Part shown: positions 3,539 to 23,038 of the stretch, in pieces
Layout of the letters: every line of letters starts with the position of its first letter
Numbering within the stretch: position 1 is the first letter of the stretch
Assembly: GCA_965225985.1 (NCBI GenBank)
Contig: OZ245330.1
Coordinates: 971,509 to 1,035,508, forward strand
DNA length: 64,000 bases
Reading direction: 5' to 3'
DNA from: a bacterium
Lineage (GTDB): Bacteria; UBA8248
Program-made: the position numbers and the translations under genes
Notes under the pieces: generated by a model
What the model was told of the DNA's origin: nothing
The model's input: only the letters and a program-made list of their open reading frames with translations
The model's database searches: none

Positions 3539-4654
3539 TTACGCGTTCCGGAGAGGCAGGATCACCTCGGCCGCTCCGGTGGAGGCGACCTCGCCGCTCT
3601 GGTTCGTTCCGGTGAATTCCACCTTCACGATGGCGTCCCCGCCCTCCCGGGTTTTCTCCGTCACCTTCCCCGCGTAGCGGAAGATATCGCCGTAGATTCC
3701 GGGTTTGCGGACCTGAACGGCGCACTTTTTGAGGAAACCGTCGTCCCCCATCCAGTTCGTCACGAAGGGGCAGGCCCAGGCGAAGCGCATGACGCCGTTG
3801 TCGAAGGGCCCCGGCATCCCCCGGCCCGCGGCGATGTTCACGTCCTCGTGCTGTTGGGAGTTTTTCACCGGAAAACCGAGCTGGGGGATGGTCACGGCGT
3901 TATGGGGCGCCTTGAGGAGGTCGAGATAGCCGAGGCGGCCGGCCTTGTAGGAGGGTCCGAGGGCCGCGTTCCAGGCCACCATGTCCCCGATGGTTAGGGG
4001 GCCGCGAGTTATGGGCGGCAACTCCTCGTCCACCGAGACGTCCTCCCAGTGGCGGGTCTCGGCGCCGGTGATCTTTTCCGCCCGGTACGCCGCCTCCACC
4101 CCTTTCAGCTCTTCATCGCCTAACTTGTGAACGGGCCGGTCCAGCATGAGCTGATCGCCGGTCTGGGTCGCCCGGATCATGGTTCCGGTGGCTTTGGCGA
4201 CCACCTCGTCATTTTGGTTCCAGTAGGCGCATTCTGAAATCACGAATATGAGGCGCCGCCCGCCGCCCTTGCTTTTCTTCTCGAAGGTGCTCTTCTGGAC
4301 CGAGGCGGCGCGGAGCTTGTCCCCGGCCAGAATGGGCTTGTGCCACTCGCACTCGACTCCGCCGATGAGCGAAGAGAGCGGCGCCTCCATGGGAGCGCCG
4401 TGGAGGATGGGGTAGAGGACGGAAACGAAGAATGCCGGAGGAGCGGCGATGGTTTTGTACCGGCTCTTGGCGGCATATTCCGGATCGGTCCAGAGGGGAT
4501 TCGCGTCGTCGGTGCCGTAGGCGAAATGGCGGATGGCGTCCTCCGAGGCCTCGGTGTTCCAGGGGACGCGCTCCCGGACTTCCTTTCCGTCCATTTCGAG
4601 TGTTTTCGCGAGAAATTCATCGATTCGTGCGTTCACGTCATCGGACAACGTCAA
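3539..4654 (-). CDS. double hotdog-fold MaoC-like dehydratase/(R)-specific enoyl-CoA hydratase (mesaconyl-CoA hydratase-like architecture)
   Basis: 371-aa ORF with an N-terminal MaoC_dehydrat_N-like half and a C-terminal MaoC dehydratase half. TTG start at 4654 preceded by GAGGAGG. Confidence 0.75.
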   Translation of the reverse strand: MTLSDDVNARIDEFLAKTLEMDGKEVRERVPWNTEASEDAIRHFAYGTDDANPLWTDPEYAAKSRYKTIAAPPAFFVSVLYPILHGAPMEAPLSSLIGGVECEWHKPILAGDKLRAASVQKSTFEKKSKGGGRRLIFVISECAYWNQNDEVVAKATGTMIRATQTGDQLMLDRPVHKLGDEELKGVEAAYRAEKITGAETRHWEDVSVDEELPPITRGPLTIGDMVAWNAALGPSYKAGRLGYLDLLKAPHNAVTIPQLGFPVKNSQQHEDVNIAAGRGMPGPFDNGVMRFAWACPFVTNWMGDDGFLKKCAVQVRKPGIYGDIFRYAGKVTEKTREGGDAIVKVEFTGTNQSGEVASTGAAEVILPLRNA

Positions 4655-12743: not shown

Positions 12744-13439
12744 GTGTCCGTCCGGCTCTTGCTCCAGCCCGCAGGGAGTGGACGGTTGCGAGGCAAATTC
12801 ATCACATTCGAAGGCCCGGAAGGGAGCGGAAAGTCCACCCAGGTGGCCTTACTGGGCGATTGGCTGCAAGCGGAGGGCCTCCCTTATTTGATCACCCGCG
12901 AACCGGGGGGAACCGGCATCGGCGGCGAGATCCGCTCGGTCCTGCTCTCGGTGCGCGATGAAAAAATGGCGCCGGAGGCCGAGTTGTTTCTTTACGAAGC
13001 CGACCGGGCCCAGCACATCGCCGAGGTGATTCGCCCCGCCCTCGATGCGGGCACGCATATCCTCTGCGATCGGTTCACCGACTCCACCCTCGCCTACCAG
13101 GCCTTCGGGCGGGGTCTGCCCGAAGAGCGCGTGCGCGAGCTCAACGCGCAGGCGAGCGGCGGGCTCGTCCCGGACCTCACCCTTCTCTTCGAGGGTTCCC
13201 CGGAAGAAAACCTCCAGCGGGCCCGGGGCGGCACCGGGGGCGACCGCCTGGAGGGGGAGGATTTGAATTTTCACGAGCGCGTGTGGAACGGTTTTTTGCA
13301 ATTGCAACGCGGCGACCCGGCCCGGATACGCCTCGTTCCGAAGGGAAGCGTCGAGGAGGTTTGCGATCGGGTGCGGTGCGTGGTGGCGGGCGAGTTCGGG
13401 TGGGCTGGGAAACCCTCCGCGGCCAAGACGCAGCGGTAG
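12744..13439 (+). CDS. tmk: thymidylate kinase
   Basis: KFITFEGPEGSGKSTQ P-loop; DRF/lid region. True start probably a TTG/GTG slightly downstream of 12744. Confidence 0.85.
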   Translation: MSVRLLLQPAGSGRLRGKFITFEGPEGSGKSTQVALLGDWLQAEGLPYLITREPGGTGIGGEIRSVLLSVRDEKMAPEAELFLYEADRAQHIAEVIRPALDAGTHILCDRFTDSTLAYQAFGRGLPEERVRELNAQASGGLVPDLTLLFEGSPEENLQRARGGTGGDRLEGEDLNFHERVWNGFLQLQRGDPARIRLVPKGSVEEVCDRVRCVVAGEFGWAGKPSAAKTQR

Positions 13440-14425
13440 GCGGGCTGCGGGGCGACCTGTCCTCGGGCCAAGTCGCGCACGCCTATTTGTTTTTCGGTCC
13501 CCAGGGGGTGGGGAAGGCAACGGCGGCTTCCCTGCTCGCCCAGGCGCTTCAGTGCGAGGGGAGCGCGCCCCCCTGTGATGCCTGCCGCGCCTGTGAAAAA
13601 GTGAAGCGGGGCGTCCACCCGGATGTCATCACATTGCGCCGGGCCGAGGATCGCCAAAGCATCGGGACGGAGGCAGTCCGGGAGCAGGTTCTTCGCAGGG
13701 CTTACCTGCGCCCCCAGGAAGGGCGCTGGCAAGTGTTCGTCATCGACGATGTTCAGTTGGTAACGGTGAATGCGCTCAACGCGCTTTTGAAAACCCTGGA
13801 AGAGCCTCCCCCGGACACGGTCCTCATCCTGGTTACGCCCAACCTGCACGCGCTTCCCGCCACCGTGGTCTCGCGCTGCCGGCGCGTTCGGTTCAACGGC
13901 CTGAGCAGGTCCGACTTGACCGCCATCCTCGCGGAGAAACAGGGCGGCGAAGAGGCGGACCTCCACCGGCTCGTTTCCTTGAGCATGGGCCGGTTGGATC
14001 GGGTGCTGGGGCCGGAGGCGGCCGACCTGGCCGGGAGGCGCGAAGCCGTGCTGGAGCTGTTGAACGGCCTGGCCGTTCCGCCGGGAAAAGCGGACGAGGC
14101 GGGGCTATTATCGATGGCGGCCGACCTCGCGGGGGCCGGGAAAACCGCCCGGCAGGATGTTTTCCAGCTCCTGGAAATGCTTCGGGGGCTTTTTCGCGAT
14201 ATAATCATTCTTCAGGTGGCTCCGGGCGACCTGGAGCCGTGGAGCGTGGACGTGGAAGAGGAGCTGTCGGAGGTGGGTCGCAGTTGGGGACTCAGCGGAC
14301 TTATCCGAGCTCTCGAGAAGGTGGAATCGGCAGGCCGTGACGTTTCGGCCGGAAATACCAATCCCGCCCTTACCTTGGAGGAGTTGATCATTGCGCTGCG
14401 GTCCACCGTGGCTGCGGGCGTTTGA
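13397..14425 (+). CDS. holB: DNA polymerase III subunit delta'
   Basis: AHAYLFFGPQGVGKATAA Walker A, zinc module CEGSAPPCDACRAC, SRC motif (VVSRCRRVRF). GTG start near 13397 overlapping the tmk stop, tmk-holB order as in Bacillus. Confidence 0.75.
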   Translation, partial: RVGWETLRGQDAAVGGLRGDLSSGQVAHAYLFFGPQGVGKATAASLLAQALQCEGSAPPCDACRACEKVKRGVHPDVITLRRAEDRQSIGTEAVREQVLRRAYLRPQEGRWQVFVIDDVQLVTVNALNALLKTLEEPPPDTVLILVTPNLHALPATVVSRCRRVRFNGLSRSDLTAILAEKQGGEEADLHRLVSLSMGRLDRVLGPEAADLAGRREAVLELLNGLAVPPGKADEAGLLSMAADLAGAGKTARQDVFQLLEMLRGLFRDIIILQVAPGDLEPWSVDVEEELSEVGRSWGLSGLIRALEKVESAGRDVSAGNTNPALTLEELIIALRSTVAAGV

Positions 14426-15357
14426 GGATGAGTATGAACGAATTTTCAGGTTTCGATCAGGCCGCGGTGACCACCGCGCCAGAAGACACGGCGGAAGAGT
14501 CGTCCGAGAAAATCCGCATCGCCGGGGTCCGCCTCCGGTTCGGGGCGCGGCCGATTTTCCACCTGGCTGGCGAAATCCCCTTGCGGGTCGGCGATAAGGT
14601 TGTGGTGGAGACCGAGGGCGGGGAGGAGGAGTTCGGAGAAATTTCCGAGAGCACGCGCATTTTCCCGGCCCGTTATCACAAAAAACCGTTGCAGCAGATC
14701 CGTCGCCGCGCGGGAGCGGACGACCTCAAAAAGATCGAGAAGTCGGCGAGGCTGGAAGCGGACGCGCTGGGATATTGCCGCAAAAAGATCAAAGAGATGA
14801 AATTGCCCATGCACCTCCTCGATGTGAAGTACACGTTTTCCCAACGCAATGCGACCTTCTTTTTCTCGGCGGATGGGCGGGTTGATTTCCGCCGTCTCGT
14901 TCGCGCCCTCACGGAGCGGTTCTCGGTCCGCGTCGAGATGCGCCAGCTCGGGGCGCGCGATGAGGCAAAAATAAAGGGCGGCTGTGGACCTTGCGGCCGA
15001 ACCCTTTGCTGCAGCAGTTTTCTGCTCGCATTTGACCCCATCTCGGTCCGGATGGCGAAGGACCAAAACCTGAGCCTGAACCCGTCCAAGCTTTCGGGAG
15101 CGTGCGGGCGGCTGAAGTGCTGCCTCCGGTTTGAGCACTCTCATTACGTGTCGGTGAAAAAAAAGCTTCCCGCTTGCAAGAAAAAAGTGGGCGGGTGCAA
15201 CTGTGGGGCCAGTGTGATTCGTCAGGATATTCTCAAGGAGGAGGTGACTCTCAGCCTCGAGAACGGAGAGCGCATGGTGGTCCATGCCGATGAACTCGAG
15301 CGGATGCCGAACGGGCAGTACGCGCTGAAGAATCCCTTGGGCGAAAACCAAAATTGA
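14422..15357 (+). CDS. PSP1 C-terminal domain protein (stage 0 sporulation YaaT/RicT-like)
   Basis: 311-aa ORF with the PSP1 domain and Cys-rich C-terminus (GGCGPCGRTLCCSSF...GACGRLKCCLRFEH). Follows holB as yaaT does in Bacillus. Confidence 0.8.
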   Translation: MRMSMNEFSGFDQAAVTTAPEDTAEESSEKIRIAGVRLRFGARPIFHLAGEIPLRVGDKVVVETEGGEEEFGEISESTRIFPARYHKKPLQQIRRRAGADDLKKIEKSARLEADALGYCRKKIKEMKLPMHLLDVKYTFSQRNATFFFSADGRVDFRRLVRALTERFSVRVEMRQLGARDEAKIKGGCGPCGRTLCCSSFLLAFDPISVRMAKDQNLSLNPSKLSGACGRLKCCLRFEHSHYVSVKKKLPACKKKVGGCNCGASVIRQDILKEEVTLSLENGERMVVHADELERMPNGQYALKNPLGENQN

Positions 15358-15383
15358 GATCCGCCGGGAGGCGGTTTGAACGG

Positions 15384-17372
15384 ATGGCGAGCAAACCTTT
15401 TTATATCACCACACCCATTTATTACGTAAACGATAAGCCCCACCTCGGCCACGCTTATACCACTATCGCGGCTGACGTGAAGGCGCGCTTCCACCGCTTG
15501 CGGGGAGAGGAAGTCCGCTTTCTCACCGGAACGGACGAGCACGGCCAAAAGCTTGCGCGGGCCGCCGAGGAGGCCGGAATGGCGCCAAAGCCGTTCACCG
15601 ACCTCAACTGCGCCAAGTTCCGCGGGCTCTGGGAAAAGCTGAATATCAGCTACGACGACTTCATCCGGACAACCGAAGACCGGCACAAGAAGGGCGTCGC
15701 GGAGCTCTGGCGCCGGGTTTTTGCCGCGGGCGATATCTACAAGGGCGAATACGAGGGCAAGTACTGCGTCTCGTGCGAGACCTACTTTACCGATCTTCAG
15801 CTCTTGGACGGCAATTGCCCCGATTGCGGAAGACCCGCCGAGTTGGTGAGCGAGGACAGCTACTTTTTCCGGCTGGGCAAGTACGAAAAGCCCCTCCTCG
15901 ATCACTACGAGCGCCACCCCGGGTTCATCATGCCCGAATCCCGGCGGAACGAGATCATTAGCTTCGTGCGGGGAGGGCTGCGCGATTTATCGGTAAGCCG
16001 GACTTCCCTCAAGTGGGGAATATCCGTGCCGGACGACCCGTCGCACGTCATTTACGTTTGGTTCGACGCCCTCAGCAACTATATGACCGCGGCGGGCTTC
16101 GGGCCCGGTGGCGGGGAAGGAGGGTTTGCGGAGGCCACCGCCTGGCCCGCCGATCAGCATTTTATTGGAAAGGACATCCTCCGTTTCCACGCGGTCTACT
16201 GGCCCGCTTTTCTCCTCTCGGCGGGAATCCCGCTTCCGGAGCAGGTGTACAGCCACGGCTGGTGGACGATCGAGGGGCAAAAGATGTCCAAGAGCCTGGG
16301 CAATGCGGTGGACCCCCACTGGCTCATCGAAGAGTACGGGGTGGATGCCATACGGTATTTCGTTTTGCGCGAGATTCCTTTCGGCCTGGACGGGGATTTT
16401 TCCCACAGCCATCTCATCTCCCGGATCAACAGCGATCTGGCCAACGACCTGGGAAATCTGCTCCACCGCACCCTCAACATGGTCAAGCGGTACAGAAAGG
16501 GCCGCCTTCTCCGCGCGCCGGGGGGGGAGGGCCAGGCCGAGAAGGACTTGTGCAGCCTGGTTGAAAGCGCCGCGAAGACCTATGAACGGGAAATGGAGGC
16601 GACGAATTTCCAGGAGGGTCTCAAAGCGGCCTGGACCGTTGTTTCCGCAGCCAACAAGTACATCGATTCGAGCGCGCCCTGGGAGCTTGCCAAGAAAAAG
16701 GAAAGCGATCGGCTGGACGCTGTTCTGTACCACGCGGGCGCCTCATTGCGCGTGGTGGCGGCTCTGGTTCTGCCGTTTATGCCCGAGGCGGCGGGAAAGA
16801 TTTGCGCCCAGCTCGGGCTTCCCGCTGAATCTCTCTCGGCGCCCTTCCGGGAGTTGACCGCGCTGCGGGCCTTTCCCGAGTCGGTGGAGACCCGTCTCGG
16901 AAAGCCGATTTTCCCCCGAATTGAAGAAGAGGCGCGGGCCGAGATTGAAAAGAAGGTCGCCGCCCGCATTGCAGCCGGCGATGCGGCAGACGCTCCGGCG
17001 GCGGAGCCGGGGGGGGAGGGCGTTTTGCGGAACGGGAGGGAGGGTGTCCCGCAAATCACCTTCGATGAGTTCCAGCGGCTGGACCTGCGCGTGGTGAAGG
17101 TGGTTGCCGCCGCTCCTGTCCCCAAATCGAAAAACTTGATAAAGTTGGAGGTAGAGCTTTCCGGCGAGCGGCGGACCGTTGTGGCCGGAATTGCCAAACA
17201 TTACGCGCCCGACCAGCTGGTGGGACGAAGGCTCGTTCTGGTGGCCAACCTCGAGCCCACCACCCTCATGGGGGTGGAGTCACAGGGGATGATACTCGCG
17301 GCGGTGGACGGGGATCGGATCCGGGTTCTCGGGGTGGATGGCGAGGTCGAACCCGGCGCGCGTGTTCGTTGA
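15384..17372 (+). CDS. metG: methionine--tRNA ligase with C-terminal tRNA-binding (EMAP/Trbp111) domain
   Basis: MASKPFYITTPIYYVNDKPHLGHAYTT (HIGH), zinc knuckle CVSCETYF...CPDCG, KMSKS, C-terminal DLRVVKV...tRNA-binding domain. Confidence 0.9.
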   Translation: MASKPFYITTPIYYVNDKPHLGHAYTTIAADVKARFHRLRGEEVRFLTGTDEHGQKLARAAEEAGMAPKPFTDLNCAKFRGLWEKLNISYDDFIRTTEDRHKKGVAELWRRVFAAGDIYKGEYEGKYCVSCETYFTDLQLLDGNCPDCGRPAELVSEDSYFFRLGKYEKPLLDHYERHPGFIMPESRRNEIISFVRGGLRDLSVSRTSLKWGISVPDDPSHVIYVWFDALSNYMTAAGFGPGGGEGGFAEATAWPADQHFIGKDILRFHAVYWPAFLLSAGIPLPEQVYSHGWWTIEGQKMSKSLGNAVDPHWLIEEYGVDAIRYFVLREIPFGLDGDFSHSHLISRINSDLANDLGNLLHRTLNMVKRYRKGRLLRAPGGEGQAEKDLCSLVESAAKTYEREMEATNFQEGLKAAWTVVSAANKYIDSSAPWELAKKKESDRLDAVLYHAGASLRVVAALVLPFMPEAAGKICAQLGLPAESLSAPFRELTALRAFPESVETRLGKPIFPRIEEEARAEIEKKVAARIAAGDAADAPAAEPGGEGVLRNGREGVPQITFDEFQRLDLRVVKVVAAAPVPKSKNLIKLEVELSGERRTVVAGIAKHYAPDQLVGRRLVLVANLEPTTLMGVESQGMILAAVDGDRIRVLGVDGEVEPGARVR

Positions 17373-17418
17373 GCCGTATTCGAAATGAAGCTCCCCCCGG
17401 GGGGCTGGAGAATTCCAA

Positions 17419-19137
17419 ATGATAAATCCCCGGAGGGGGGGCCGTCCGCGGAGACGGTCGCCTGGCTCTAATTCTCCGGCGGGAAAGCCTGCCGGTCCGG
17501 AGTCCTTGTCGGATTCGAACCCCTCGTCGCAGGAAATCGAAGCGAATAGCCCGCACGACCCGTCTCAGGCGCCGAATCCAGGCGGCCCGGACAAGCCTTC
17601 CGACGGGAAGAGGCGCCGGAACCGCAGGCGCCGCCCCCGCCGCTCCCCCCGGAACCGGGACCCGAAAAACGGAAACGGGCGGGCCGTCGGTGACGAAGGG
17701 CCGGGTACGCAGAACGATTCAGGGGTGAAATTCCCCGCAATCGAGGGTGTTCCCCTTCTTGTCGATACGCATGCCCATCTCGAGGCCTCCGAATTCGACC
17801 CCGACCGCAGGAGTGTCCTCGACCGCGCCAACTCACAAGGCGTTCGGCATGTCATCGCTGTCGGGTCGGACGTTAAATCCAGCCGGAAATCATTGGAAAT
17901 CGCGGCCGCATATGCGGATATCTATGCCGCGGTGGGCGTTCATCCGCACGAGGTGAAAAGCGCCGGGAAAAGAACGCTTGCCACCATCGCCTCCTTATCG
18001 GAGAGCCCGAAAGCCGTCGCCATCGGTGAAATCGGACTCGATTACTTCCGGAACAACAGCCCCCAAAAGCTTCAGCGGCACTGGTTTCGGGATCAACTCC
18101 AGCTGGCCATCAAGGTTCAAAAGCCCGTAATCGTTCACTGCCGGGACGCGGACGAGGATTTGTATAACATTCTTAATGAAGAGCGGGTTTGGCGGGCTGG
18201 AGGTGTCCTCCATTGTTTTACCGGCGACGGGGAGTTCGCCAAAAAACTGCTCGGCCTGGACCTCTACCTCGGCGCGGCGGGACCTTTGACATTCGAAAAG
18301 TCCGCCGACCTCAGAAAAGTGTTCGAGGGGATCCCCGTTGAGCGCATTCTTGTCGAAACCGATAGTCCCTACCTTTCCCCGCCGCCCGACCGCGGAAAAC
18401 GGAACGAACCGGCCCATGTGGTCCGGGTCTCCCAGGCGCTGGCCGATGTTTTCGACCTTACGGTGGAGGAGGTGGCTCGAATCACAACGCACAACGCGCG
18501 TCGCCTTTTTGGGCTTGAAGTTGAAAAGAGCGGGCCGGTCATCGCCTATCGGATTGAAGAAAAACTCTATCTGAACATCTCGGGGCAATGCTCCAATTCC
18601 TGTATTTTCTGTGCCCGGCTCACCGATTTTCATTACAAAGGCTTCGACTTGTTTTTGAAAGAGGAAGAGCCGAATGTCGATGCGATACTCGAGGCGGCGG
18701 GCGATCCAAGCCGCTACGAGGAGGTTGTCTTCAGCGGGTTCGGCGAGCCCACCCTCCGGCTGGACATCCTCAAAGAAGTGGCGAGGGGGCTGCGGGAGCG
18801 TGGCGCGAGGCGGATCCGCCTGGTGACGAACGGATTGGGGAACAAGACGAACGGGCGGAACATTTTTCCTGAGTTGCAGGGCCTCGTTGACGCCATTTCG
18901 GTGAGCCTCCAGGCCGATAGCGCGGAGGCCTATATGAAAGTGTGCAAAACCGAAGGCATCGAGGAGCCCTTTTCGGTTGTCAAGGATTTCGTCCGGCGGG
19001 CGAGGGCTTATTATCCGGATGTCGAGGCCACCGCCGTAGACATGCCGGGCATCATCAACATCGATTCCTGCGAGCGGGTCGCCCGCGAGGAGCTGGGCGT
19101 CAGTTTCCGGAGGCGGGCGTATACCCTCGTGGATTGA
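17419..19137 (+). CDS. fusion protein: low-complexity Arg/Pro/Ser-rich N-terminus + TatD-family metal-dependent hydrolase + C-terminal radical-SAM domain (TatD-associated radical SAM type)
   Basis: TatD motifs (LVDTHAHL, GEIGLDY, HCRDA, ETDSPYL); one continuous frame then carries a CSNSCIFC (Cx3Cx2C) radical-SAM cluster motif and ~190 further residues. Start ambiguous: ATG 17419 (GGAG 9 nt upstream) or GTG ~17724. Confidence 0.8.
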   Translation: MINPRRGGRPRRRSPGSNSPAGKPAGPESLSDSNPSSQEIEANSPHDPSQAPNPGGPDKPSDGKRRRNRRRRPRRSPRNRDPKNGNGRAVGDEGPGTQNDSGVKFPAIEGVPLLVDTHAHLEASEFDPDRRSVLDRANSQGVRHVIAVGSDVKSSRKSLEIAAAYADIYAAVGVHPHEVKSAGKRTLATIASLSESPKAVAIGEIGLDYFRNNSPQKLQRHWFRDQLQLAIKVQKPVIVHCRDADEDLYNILNEERVWRAGGVLHCFTGDGEFAKKLLGLDLYLGAAGPLTFEKSADLRKVFEGIPVERILVETDSPYLSPPPDRGKRNEPAHVVRVSQALADVFDLTVEEVARITTHNARRLFGLEVEKSGPVIAYRIEEKLYLNISGQCSNSCIFCARLTDFHYKGFDLFLKEEEPNVDAILEAAGDPSRYEEVVFSGFGEPTLRLDILKEVARGLRERGARRIRLVTNGLGNKTNGRNIFPELQGLVDAISVSLQADSAEAYMKVCKTEGIEEPFSVVKDFVRRARAYYPDVEATAVDMPGIINIDSCERVAREELGVSFRRRAYTLVD

Positions 19138-19239: not shown

Positions 19240-19266
19240 TCAGCACTCTCCCCCTTAGAGTGATAA
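19240..19266 (+). promoter_or_regulatory. CIRCE operator (HrcA binding site) upstream of groES
   Basis: TCAGCACTC-N9-GAGTGATAA, 16/18 match to TTAGCACTC-N9-GAGTGCTAA. Confidence 0.6.
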
Positions 19267-21661: not shown

Positions 21662-23038
21662 ATGGGGATGATGACGAAGGCAAACGGTATGAATATACGT
21701 CAAAGTCCTGTTCTCATTTCCTTTTTCATATCCCTCCTCGTTCATTTATTTTTGTTCGGCGCCTTCAGTCTGGAAATCTTCTGGCCCAAAACCGTTTCCG
21801 CGAAGCGGCCCATCTCGGTTCGTATCGTTCCCATCGCGCAGCCCCCGCCCGAGGAGCCGCAATCGCCCAATCCCGAGAGCCGCAATCTTTCCGATGCGAA
21901 CCGGAAAGAGAGCGGAGCGGGTGAGCCGAGCGAGAACCCGAAACTTCGAAGCGAGGAGGAAGAAGGCCTGGCTTCAAAGCAAGGCTCCGGCGTGGAGGAC
22001 GTACCCGTCCAGGTGGCGGCGCTTCCTCCGTCACCGCCCCCCGCTCCGAAGGCCCCCTTGGAACCTGAACCTGCTCCCCCGTTGCGGGTTGTGGAGCCGC
22101 CTCTTGCTTCCGAGCCGCGGGAGGAGGCCCCGGCCGCCTCGGTGGTGCTTGAGCCGGACCCGCCGAAGCGGGTGGAAGCGCCGCCTTCCGCCCCCGCACC
22201 CCAGGAGGAAACTCGGGTCCCCTTGCCGGAGCCGCCCGTGCCCGAAAAGGTGGAGGCGCCGCCTCTTCCGGCGCCTGATAGGCCGGAACCCGAGAATATC
22301 GTGGTGGAATCGGTTAAGCCCGAGTCCGCAAAGCGGAAGGAGGAACCCCCCAAGCCGGTAGCGCCGAGCGGGATTGAAGCGGTGCGGGAGGCGCCCGTGG
22401 AAAAGACGGTTCCCGCAAAAAAAGCCGAAACCGAAAAAGTGAAGCGGGAGGAGATTCAGCCGGTCCCCCCCAAGTTGCCGGAACCGAAGGAGCCGATCGA
22501 AGTTGCCGCCCTGCCTCCCCTCCAGGCTGAGCCCCCTCTCCCGCAGGCGGCCCCCCGGCCGGATAGGCCCGTCCAGGCGGACCCTCTCGCCATGTTCCGC
22601 CTCAATCCGGAAAAGAGGGGAAGGCCGGACGCGCCCGACCTCGATCTTTCTGATGATGAAGTGGCGCGAATCGCCAAGGCGGCCCGCGAGCGGGAGGCGG
22701 AAGAGGGAGAAGCGGTCTCCCTCGAAACGCGCGACTTCCGCTATGTATCTTATTTCGCGCACATCAAGCGCAGGATTCAGGGGGCCTGGAGGTGGCCGCG
22801 CGAGGCGAAAAATTACGAGGGAAAGGTGCAGATGCGGTTCGTCCTCAACGAGGACGGCTCGCTTGCACGTGTGAAGCTCATACATTCATCGGGCTACCGG
22901 ATTTTGGATGACGAGGCGGTCGCCGCCGTTACAAAGGCTGCTCCCTTCAATCCTTTCCCGCCTGATTTCAAAAGAAAGGTTTTGCCCATTCAAGCTTCTT
23001 TTTTGTACGAGCGGCGCCGGGGGCTATTTTCGCAATAA
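21662..23038 (+). CDS. TonB-family energy transducer (N-terminal TM anchor, very long Pro/Glu/Ala-rich spacer, TonB C-terminal domain)
   Basis: TM helix VLISFFISLLVHLFLFGAF; ~250-aa proline-rich region; C-terminal KVQMRFVLNEDGSLARVKLIHSSGYRILDDEAVAAVTKAAPFNPFP TonB_C fold. Confidence 0.7.
   Translation: MGMMTKANGMNIRQSPVLISFFISLLVHLFLFGAFSLEIFWPKTVSAKRPISVRIVPIAQPPPEEPQSPNPESRNLSDANRKESGAGEPSENPKLRSEEEEGLASKQGSGVEDVPVQVAALPPSPPPAPKAPLEPEPAPPLRVVEPPLASEPREEAPAASVVLEPDPPKRVEAPPSAPAPQEETRVPLPEPPVPEKVEAPPLPAPDRPEPENIVVESVKPESAKRKEEPPKPVAPSGIEAVREAPVEKTVPAKKAETEKVKREEIQPVPPKLPEPKEPIEVAALPPLQAEPPLPQAAPRPDRPVQADPLAMFRLNPEKRGRPDAPDLDLSDDEVARIAKAAREREAEEGEAVSLETRDFRYVSYFAHIKRRIQGAWRWPREAKNYEGKVQMRFVLNEDGSLARVKLIHSSGYRILDDEAVAAVTKAAPFNPFPPDFKRKVLPIQASFLYERRRGLFSQ

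Follow-up and report, generated by a model that had tools for sequence, protein, structure and literature searches.

We describe a gene of an uncultured Nitrospinota bacterium which joins, in one polypeptide, a polybasic disordered tail, an intact metallo-hydrolase domain of the TatD family and a minimal radical S-adenosylmethionine (SAM) domain (rSAM below). The gene lies in a 64,000-nucleotide (nt) stretch of contig OZ245330.1 (assembly GCA_965225985.1, forward strand), which we refer to as the window and whose coordinates are used throughout. We are nearly certain that this is a genuine single gene maintained by selection. On its function we are more tentative: with a probability of roughly 0.45, we propose that the protein is an enzyme with two active sites which act on one and the same polynucleotide substrate, either RNA or DNA.

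The open reading frame (ORF) of tatD::rSAM runs uninterrupted from an ATG at 17419 to a TGA at 19137 on the + strand and encodes 572 amino acids (aa). A frame of identical length is present in relatives at 88-89% identity from three independent assemblies (L001, L002 and L003), and no stop codon or frameshift was found at the domain junction in these three or in hundreds of homologues. Purifying selection acts on both halves: in comparisons with the three closest relatives, the ratio of non-synonymous to synonymous substitution rates (dN/dS) falls at 0.40-0.67 in the TatD part and at 0.22-0.27 in the rSAM part. An AlphaFold model of the whole protein has a predicted local distance difference test score (pLDDT) above 90 for both domains, and a predicted template modelling score (pTM) of 0.77 with 100 disordered residues included. 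An earlier examination of this DNA, made from the letters alone (the sequence-only reading), had described a single polypeptide in which a TatD hydrolase is joined to a TatD-associated rSAM domain; one frame indeed holds both, and each domain exceeds the curated cutoff of its family.

The first of these domains matches the Pfam model TatD_DNase (PF01026) over the full model length at aa 115-365 (E = 1.1e-83), and scores 283.5 bits against a cutoff of 206 with the NCBIfam model TIGR00010 (YchF/TatD family DNA exonuclease), aa 114-365 aligning with positions 1-252 of 253. All motifs quoted in the sequence-only reading are present: HAHL (aa 118-121), GEIGLDY (aa 203-209), HCRDA (aa 240-244) and ETDSPYL (aa 313-319) in this domain, and CSNSCIFC and VVFSGFGEPT (aa 436-445) in the rSAM domain. 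In an alignment of 49 homologues none of the TatD metal ligands H118, H120, E204, H240, H265 and D315 varies, and the domain is, to judge from its residues, complete and catalytically intact. Its closest sequence matches in the PDB are 1j6o, 6l25 (YcfH) and 2gzx, with a further YcfH structure, 1yix, also among the best. By its HxH motif the domain belongs to Group II of the TatD paralogues, as that group is defined in PMC10085689.

Narrower TatD families do not accommodate the protein. It scores 201.4 bits with the YcfH equivalog (NF008075 / PRK10812; cutoff 438) and 183 bits with that of E. coli TatD (NF007745; cutoff 395), and has HxH instead of the (G/A)xN of Group I. With QatD, the TatD nuclease of the Qat anti-phage system, it reaches 87.7 bits against an NCBIfam cutoff of 230, and 81.7 bits in PADLOC, the latter score reflecting generic TatD similarity. 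A QatD-like role in anti-phage defence is ruled out by the sub-cutoff score together with the housekeeping neighbours metG and groES/groEL. Among characterized relatives, E. coli TatD degrades single-stranded DNA (ssDNA) and RNA as a Mg2+-dependent 3'-5' exonuclease (PMC4176340), and E. coli YcfH combines 3'-exonuclease activity on ssDNA with apurinic/apyrimidinic (AP) endonuclease activity (PMC10085689). According to the account of Wydau et al. 2009 given in PMC10711561, YcfH, unlike E. coli TatD, hydrolyses D-aminoacyl-tRNA, and it is YcfH that Synechocystis DTD3 most resembles.

We found that the C-terminal domain matches Pfam Radical_SAM (PF04055; aa 386-544, E = 1.9e-13) and, with 217 bits against a curated cutoff of 129.7, the model TIGR04038 (tatD_link_rSAM), of which it covers positions 2-191 of 192. 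The assignment to the rSAM family associated with TatD made in the sequence-only reading is therefore upheld. TIGR04038 corresponds to InterPro IPR023821, 'TatD family nuclease-associated radical SAM protein', and is typed as a 'subfamily_domain', so its curators expected it to occur inside larger proteins. The association with a TatD-family gene for which the family is named, whether by adjacency or by fusion, takes the form of fusion in one ORF here. The domain also has the CX3CX2C motif, the glycine-rich SAM motif and the partial TIM-barrel fold of the radical SAM superfamily, and is predicted to cleave SAM reductively by means of a [4Fe-4S]+ cluster.

The three cysteines of the cluster motif (C391, C395 and C398) are invariant in the 49 homologues, and in the wider family, sampled by 150 representatives, their conservation is 90% or more. 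In the SAM-binding stretch, Ser439 (18733-18735) replaces the Cys of the family-wide 'VVFCGYGEPT', which is conserved in at least 90% of representatives; VVFSGFGEPT is the majority consensus of the 49 close homologues, most of which have Ser at this position. Two further cysteines, C509 and C551, are invariant in the 49 close homologues but give way to M, N, S, V or K across the wider family. As these extra cysteines are not conserved family-wide, an auxiliary cluster is not expected, and no support for a SPASM or twitch domain with a second cluster was found in the rSAM domain of the window. Both an auxiliary Fe-S cluster and RlmN-like catalytic cysteines were ruled out on these grounds, the 'FCG' Cys being Ser here.

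A predicted model of the rSAM domain on its own (pLDDT 91.6, pTM 0.90) consists of a bare partial TIM-barrel core of about 195 aa. Its structural neighbours are led by NifB and PflA, which tie for first, with identities of 16-21%; Foldseek returned the same mixture, led by BlsE, RlmN, TYW1, NifB, MoaA and viperin. Nucleotides, nucleosides or RNA are the substrates of many of these enzymes. By sequence, the rSAM half has no match among solved structures at E <= 0.01. The closest other curated radical SAM family by sequence is TIGR04100 (rSAM_pair_X), which aligns end to end (aa 375-568 with model positions 2-196 of 197) at 150.2 bits against a cutoff of 262 and to which the protein does not belong. 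Weaker NCBIfam matches of the domain are to MoaA and a tungsten-cofactor maturase.

The positions of these features, and of those described further below, are collected in Table 1.

Table 1. Features of the tatD::rSAM gene and its immediate upstream region in the window.
Feature	Position	Strand	Remarks
metG, methionyl-tRNA synthetase with C-terminal tRNA-binding domain	15354..17372	+	directly upstream of the fusion; Pfam domains taken from the L001 orthologue
Shine-Dalgarno-like GGAG	17407..17410	+	8 nt upstream of ATG 17419; conserved in L001 and L003
Complete tatD::rSAM fusion ORF	17419..19137	+	572 aa plus stop; 572-codon frame also in L001, L002 and L003
Disordered Arg/Pro/Gly/Ser/Asn-rich extension	17419..17748	+	aa 1-110; clade-specific within Nitrospinota
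Polybasic core KRRRNRRRRPRRSPRNR	17608..17658	+	aa 64-80; aligns with the cores of relatives at 46-62% identity
Alternative in-frame GTG	17725..17727	+	aa 103; would give a TatD N-terminus of canonical length
TatD/YcfH/YabD-type TIM-barrel metal-dependent hydrolase domain, HxH 'Group II'	17758..18516	+	aa 114-366; Pfam, TIGR00010, pLDDT >90
Short interdomain linker	18517..18540	+	aa 367-374; between last TatD helix (end aa 364) and first rSAM strand (aa 376) in the predicted model
Minimal radical-SAM domain, family TIGR04038	18541..19122	+	aa 375-568
CX3CX2C motif CSNSCIFC, [4Fe-4S]-binding	18589..18612	+	aa 391-398; C391, C395, C398
GFGEPT, glycine-rich SAM-binding ('GGE-like') motif	18736..18753	+	aa 440-445; G440, G442, E443, P444 invariant or nearly so

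The fused arrangement is the predominant architecture of the TIGR04038 family. A search with the full-length protein returned 2552 proteins at E <= 1e-10, and PF01026 and PF04055 were both found in all 120 of its best matches. When the rSAM domain was searched against 1.84 billion cluster representatives at 50% identity, 1147 matches were obtained at E <= 1e-3 and 142 at E <= 1e-30. By local hidden Markov model (HMM) searches, the 149 nearest representatives comprise 79 with complete TatD and rSAM domains, 24 truncated fusions, in which a partial TatD part continues straight into the rSAM domain, and 46 with the rSAM domain only. A scan of one genome per species found relatives in at least 597 genomes, and of the best 80 loci, from which architecture was determined, 77 are fused. 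These come from Nitrospinota, Desulfuromonadales/Geobacteraceae, anammox Planctomycetes of the Scalindua/Brocadia type, Nitrospirota/Thermodesulfovibrionales, Omnitrophota, Zixibacteria, Myxococcota, Terriglobia and other lineages, with Trichlorobacter thiogenes, Geobacter argillaceus and Geomonas among the cultured hosts. The three split loci belong to Chlorobiaceae, to Tepidanaerobacteraceae, with metG, tatD and the rSAM gene as adjacent ORFs, and to Thermoanaerobacterales. The survey of fused and split homologues suggested in the sequence-only reading thus finds fusion in the majority.

Given this distribution, the fusion is either ancient or recurrent, and has been selected for. A crude neighbour-joining tree of 107 rSAM domains implies about 16 changes between the fused and split states; as the domain is short and the tree unreliable, fused and split forms can be said to be interleaved in it, and the number of events cannot be counted from it. 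Could the gene instead be an assembly or sequencing artefact, or a recent pseudo-fusion of a tatD gene with a separate rSAM gene beside it? Split neighbours do occur in some Firmicutes; at one such locus (L077) metG, tatD and the rSAM gene are separate ORFs, and the boundary between the latter two coincides in position with the linker of the window fusion. However, the uninterrupted frame shared by independent assemblies, the purifying selection on both halves and the fused homologues found everywhere make an artefact exceedingly improbable, and the read-through between two genes which the sequence-only reading had itself raised is rejected.

Stand-alone members of the family also exist. NCBI already gives the name 'TatD family nuclease-associated radical SAM protein' to genes of this kind in Margulisbacteria and WOR-1. 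Two of them, from WOR-1 and Margulisbacteria, lie at positions 4001-4606 of locus L084 and 4001-4630 of locus L086; in one case there is an overlap with the start of a pyridine-nucleotide-disulfide oxidoreductase gene, and the other is found between cmk and mfd, the gene for the transcription-repair coupling factor.

Comparison with known proteins shows how little of the window protein is particular to it. A 462-aa 'TatD DNase family protein' of Malonomonas rubra DSM 5091 (P0118), which likewise carries a fused TIGR04038 domain, has the same order of N-terminal TatD and C-terminal rSAM domains with a short linker, and shares with the window protein the CX3CX2C and GxGEPT motifs and an upstream metG. 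Relative to the fused family at large, the window protein adds a polybasic tail of about 110 aa, found in one Nitrospinota clade, and has Ser439 for Cys. E. coli YcfH and B. subtilis YabD resemble its TatD half in the TIM-barrel fold, the HxH motif and all metal ligands, and in gene position, downstream of holB in E. coli or metS in Bacillus; they differ in being single-domain proteins without an rSAM partner, and the window protein falls well below the YcfH equivalog (201 against 438 bits). PflA, the core of NifB and viperin share with the rSAM half a partial (beta/alpha)6 barrel, a single CX3CX2C cluster and a similar size, but at 16-17% identity, and their curated models are not passed by the window protein, which also lacks the glycyl-radical enzyme partner of PflA, the K-cluster ligands of NifB and the C-terminal extension of viperin.

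The window protein is accordingly a member of TIGR04038 fused to a TIGR00010 TatD domain, in the commonest architecture of a catalogued family, and many such two-domain proteins are already present in public annotation. The fusion in itself is not unusual. The clade-specific polybasic tail is mildly new, and the Cys-to-Ser change in 'VVFCGYGEPT' is a minor variant.

The N-terminal extension, aa 1-110, contains 18 R, 18 P, 15 G, 13 S and 10 N and has a net charge of +11, with a dense basic cluster, also of +11, at aa 61-80; the AlphaFold pLDDT is below 50 for most of aa 1-99. Its polybasic core, KRRRNRRRRPRR in the window, lies about 35-50 residues before the TatD domain and has as counterparts RxxRWRxRRRxGK in some relatives and KGRxSxWRSKWNxNKKK, with Lys for Arg, in relatives of low GC content. 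The Nitrospinota clade nearest the window, whose identity to it goes as low as about 46%, has extensions of 63-120 aa; the fusions of other phyla, about 455-464 aa long, lack them, as do several other Nitrospinota lineages, in which a stop codon is present within 9-31 codons of the domain. The basic tail is limited to one Nitrospinota clade, and so is not part of the core mechanism of the family. A twin-arginine or other signal peptide at this N-terminus was rejected, as no hydrophobic h-region follows the arginines.

The sequence-only reading had noted the basic tail with the proviso that it be translated, and we consider translation from 17419 probable on the following signs: both the ATG and its upstream GGAG are conserved, frame and length alike are kept in the relatives at 88-89% identity without frame-breaking differences, the GC content of third codon positions (GC3) is 0.74, similar to the rest of the gene, with the third position the richest in GC as in neighbouring genes, and the polybasic core can be aligned, including in the lineages with Lys for Arg. 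The alternative is that the extension is untranslated, or translated only at times, with the true start at an in-frame GTG, a fusion of about 470 aa and a 5' leader of 306 nt. Such a GTG does exist, as the sequence-only reading had stated, although its exact position is 17725 and not ~17724. A start there would agree with the fusions of other phyla and of several Nitrospinota lineages, which begin 3-30 residues before DxHxH, and the tail evolves fast, its dN/dS of 0.48-1.2 among the three closest relatives being close to neutral. Against this, all 115 codons before DxHxH are open and equal in number in the near relatives, extensions with an alignable core persist far beyond those relatives, and no properly spaced Shine-Dalgarno-like sequence was found upstream of GTG 17725. 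We think this alternative improbable; a second initiation at the GTG, beside that at 17419, may occur.

At three other Nitrospinota loci (L004, L006 and L007), the extended N-terminus seemingly starts at a GTG (VNES..., annotated as MNES...), and there is overlap between the stop-to-stop frame and the end of metG, for which reason automated start calls may be inconsistent. Just upstream of the start codon in the window, at 17391-17410 (+), is a C6/G6 palindrome, CTCCCCCCGGGGGGCTGGAG, which includes the GGAG. The fold of the metG-tatD spacer is no more stable than that of shuffled sequences (z = -0.8), which gives no indication of a regulatory hairpin that would sequester the Shine-Dalgarno sequence.

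The fusion gene follows metG after a gap of 46 nt, in which no promoter-like or terminator-like site was found on the + strand, and the two genes are probably co-transcribed. Upstream, a compact operon made up of holB, a PSP1/RicT-like gene and metG occupies 13283-17372 (+), with 4-nt overlaps of start and stop codons at 14422-14425 (holB/PSP1) and 15354-15357 (PSP1/metG). The conservation of the metG-tatD order, asserted in the sequence-only reading, is borne out well beyond the window: most of the best 80 loci, across phyla, have PSP1 and metG directly upstream of the fusion, and a tmk-holB-PSP1-metG block precedes it in many phyla. In the three closest assemblies the shared context is tmk-holB-PSP1-metG-tatD::rSAM-groES-groEL-tonB-like-dtxR-like. 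We take the housekeeping positions of E. coli holB-ycfH and Bacillus metS-yabD to be equivalent to that of the window fusion. The TatD half is the positional counterpart of YcfH/YabD and a distant orthologue at best, since synteny supports positional orthology only.

Downstream genes vary by lineage. When the ORFs located up to 3.5 kb downstream were compared all against all, no family occurred in more than 7 of the 80 loci. In the window, a CIRCE/HrcA-operator-like inverted repeat, TCAGCACTC-N9-GAGTGATAA, occurs at 19240-19266 (+), with two mismatches to the consensus and zero matches expected by chance; it is located within a 357-nt AT-rich spacer (GC about 0.39) upstream of groES (19495) and groEL (19877). 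Farther downstream, at 21662-23038 (+), is a TonB-like ORF of 458 aa with a Pro/Glu/Ala/Lys-rich low-complexity linker of about 250 aa, which in relatives is followed by a DtxR-type iron-dependent repressor.

What might the two domains do together? On the sequence evidence, the polypeptide has two intact active sites, kept together by selection across phyla, and the dominance of the fused form is a strong hint that they share a substrate; the sequence-only reading made this Rosetta-stone argument, which is valid but not new. In the mechanism that we propose, the rSAM site would cleave SAM reductively to give a 5'-deoxyadenosyl radical, which would abstract a hydrogen atom from a sugar or base of single-stranded RNA or DNA, and this radical step would remove, convert or install a group that is beyond the reach of hydrolysis alone. 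The TatD site would contribute metal-dependent phosphodiester chemistry, as a 3'->5' exonuclease on single strands or by incision at AP sites. Because the rSAM domain has no accessory substrate-binding module, recognition of the substrate would be supplied by the TatD domain. The polybasic tail found in the Nitrospinota clade may bind nucleic acid and could add non-specific affinity for polyanions. An analogy is offered by human TATDN2, in which a long disordered N-terminal region precedes an HxH TatD-family nuclease domain and mediates R-loop binding (PMC10711561). This is an analogy only, the extensions not being homologous: the tails are unrelated in sequence, that of the window protein is much shorter, and TATDN2 has no radical SAM domain.

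We also considered a more specific form of this proposal, namely a radical SAM-dependent nuclease for the repair or processing of nucleic acids, widespread in anaerobes and their descendants, which would be, spore photoproduct lyase apart, the sole class of its kind. Here, radical chemistry on a damaged or modified nucleotide would be mechanically coupled to the exonuclease or AP-endonuclease action of the TatD domain, and recruitment to RNA, the ribosome or the nucleoid would fall to the Nitrospinota tail. We regard this as speculative and, on balance, doubtful.

Several points weigh against an enzyme with two active sites on one polynucleotide. The rSAM domain can be assigned to no characterized subfamily, its structural neighbours being generic. 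In two contexts, WOR-1 and Margulisbacteria, no tatD lies beside the stand-alone rSAM genes, so the rSAM enzyme can work without a covalent or genomic link to TatD. A literature search found no experimental study of any TIGR04038 member or of a pairing of TatD with radical SAM, the sole mention of TIGR04038 that was found being as an example in a clustering method; the genes listed in a paper on C. thermocellum are all unrelated. Finally, the linkage to metG and the D-aminoacyl-tRNA deacylation attributed at second hand to YcfH fit a role centred on tRNA equally well.

Quality control of tRNA or translation is therefore the main rival, although we judge it unlikely. Under it, the TatD half would be a DTD3/YcfH-type deacylase of D- or mischarged aminoacyl-tRNA, or a nuclease of tRNA 3' ends, that tRNA, or its aminoacyl group, would also be the target of modification by the rSAM half, and co-expression with metG would follow from (Met-)tRNA being the substrate. 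The synthetase immediately upstream, here and at most loci across phyla, carries a tRNA-binding domain, and the gap that separates it from the fusion is free of signals; the TatD domain is of the YcfH type by its HxH motif and its matches to 6l25 and 1yix; and TYW1 and RlmN, radical SAM enzymes of tRNA and rRNA, are among the structural neighbours. Yet the order holB...metG-tatD is, from established knowledge, a general housekeeping arrangement which also occurs without an rSAM partner and so says little about the rSAM half, a Pfam scan of the fusion protein found no TRAM, PUA or other tRNA-binding accessory domain, and the deacylase activity of YcfH, with the closeness of DTD3 to it, comes through a secondary account (PMC10711561, citing Wydau et al. 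2009). A role in small-molecule nucleotide metabolism, in which the rSAM half would transform a free nucleotide or nucleoside in the manner of viperin, MoaA or BlsE and the TatD fold would serve as a phosphatase or esterase, seems to us less likely again. Viperin, MoaA, BlsE and DesII, whose substrates are free nucleotides or nucleotide-sugars, are among the best structural matches, the weak NCBIfam matches to MoaA and the tungsten-cofactor maturase point the same way, and a bare core of about 195 aa is what enzymes of small substrates have. But the TatD domain passes the cutoff of the TIGR00010 nuclease family with all nuclease-type metal ligands kept, no biosynthetic neighbours are conserved among the lineage-variable downstream genes, and a polybasic tail is hard to account for in an enzyme that works on small molecules.

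As a discovery the window gene is modest, with some value as a pointer to an understudied enzyme family. That family, present in the at least 597 species-representative genomes noted above, among them tractable Geobacter/Trichlorobacter as well as environmentally important nitrite oxidisers and anammox bacteria, occupies a conserved housekeeping slot beside metG. Identifying a substrate common to the two domains would give a function to a conserved orphan radical SAM family, and could clarify the debated role of YcfH/YabD-type proteins in DNA repair, RNA processing or aminoacyl-tRNA proofreading.

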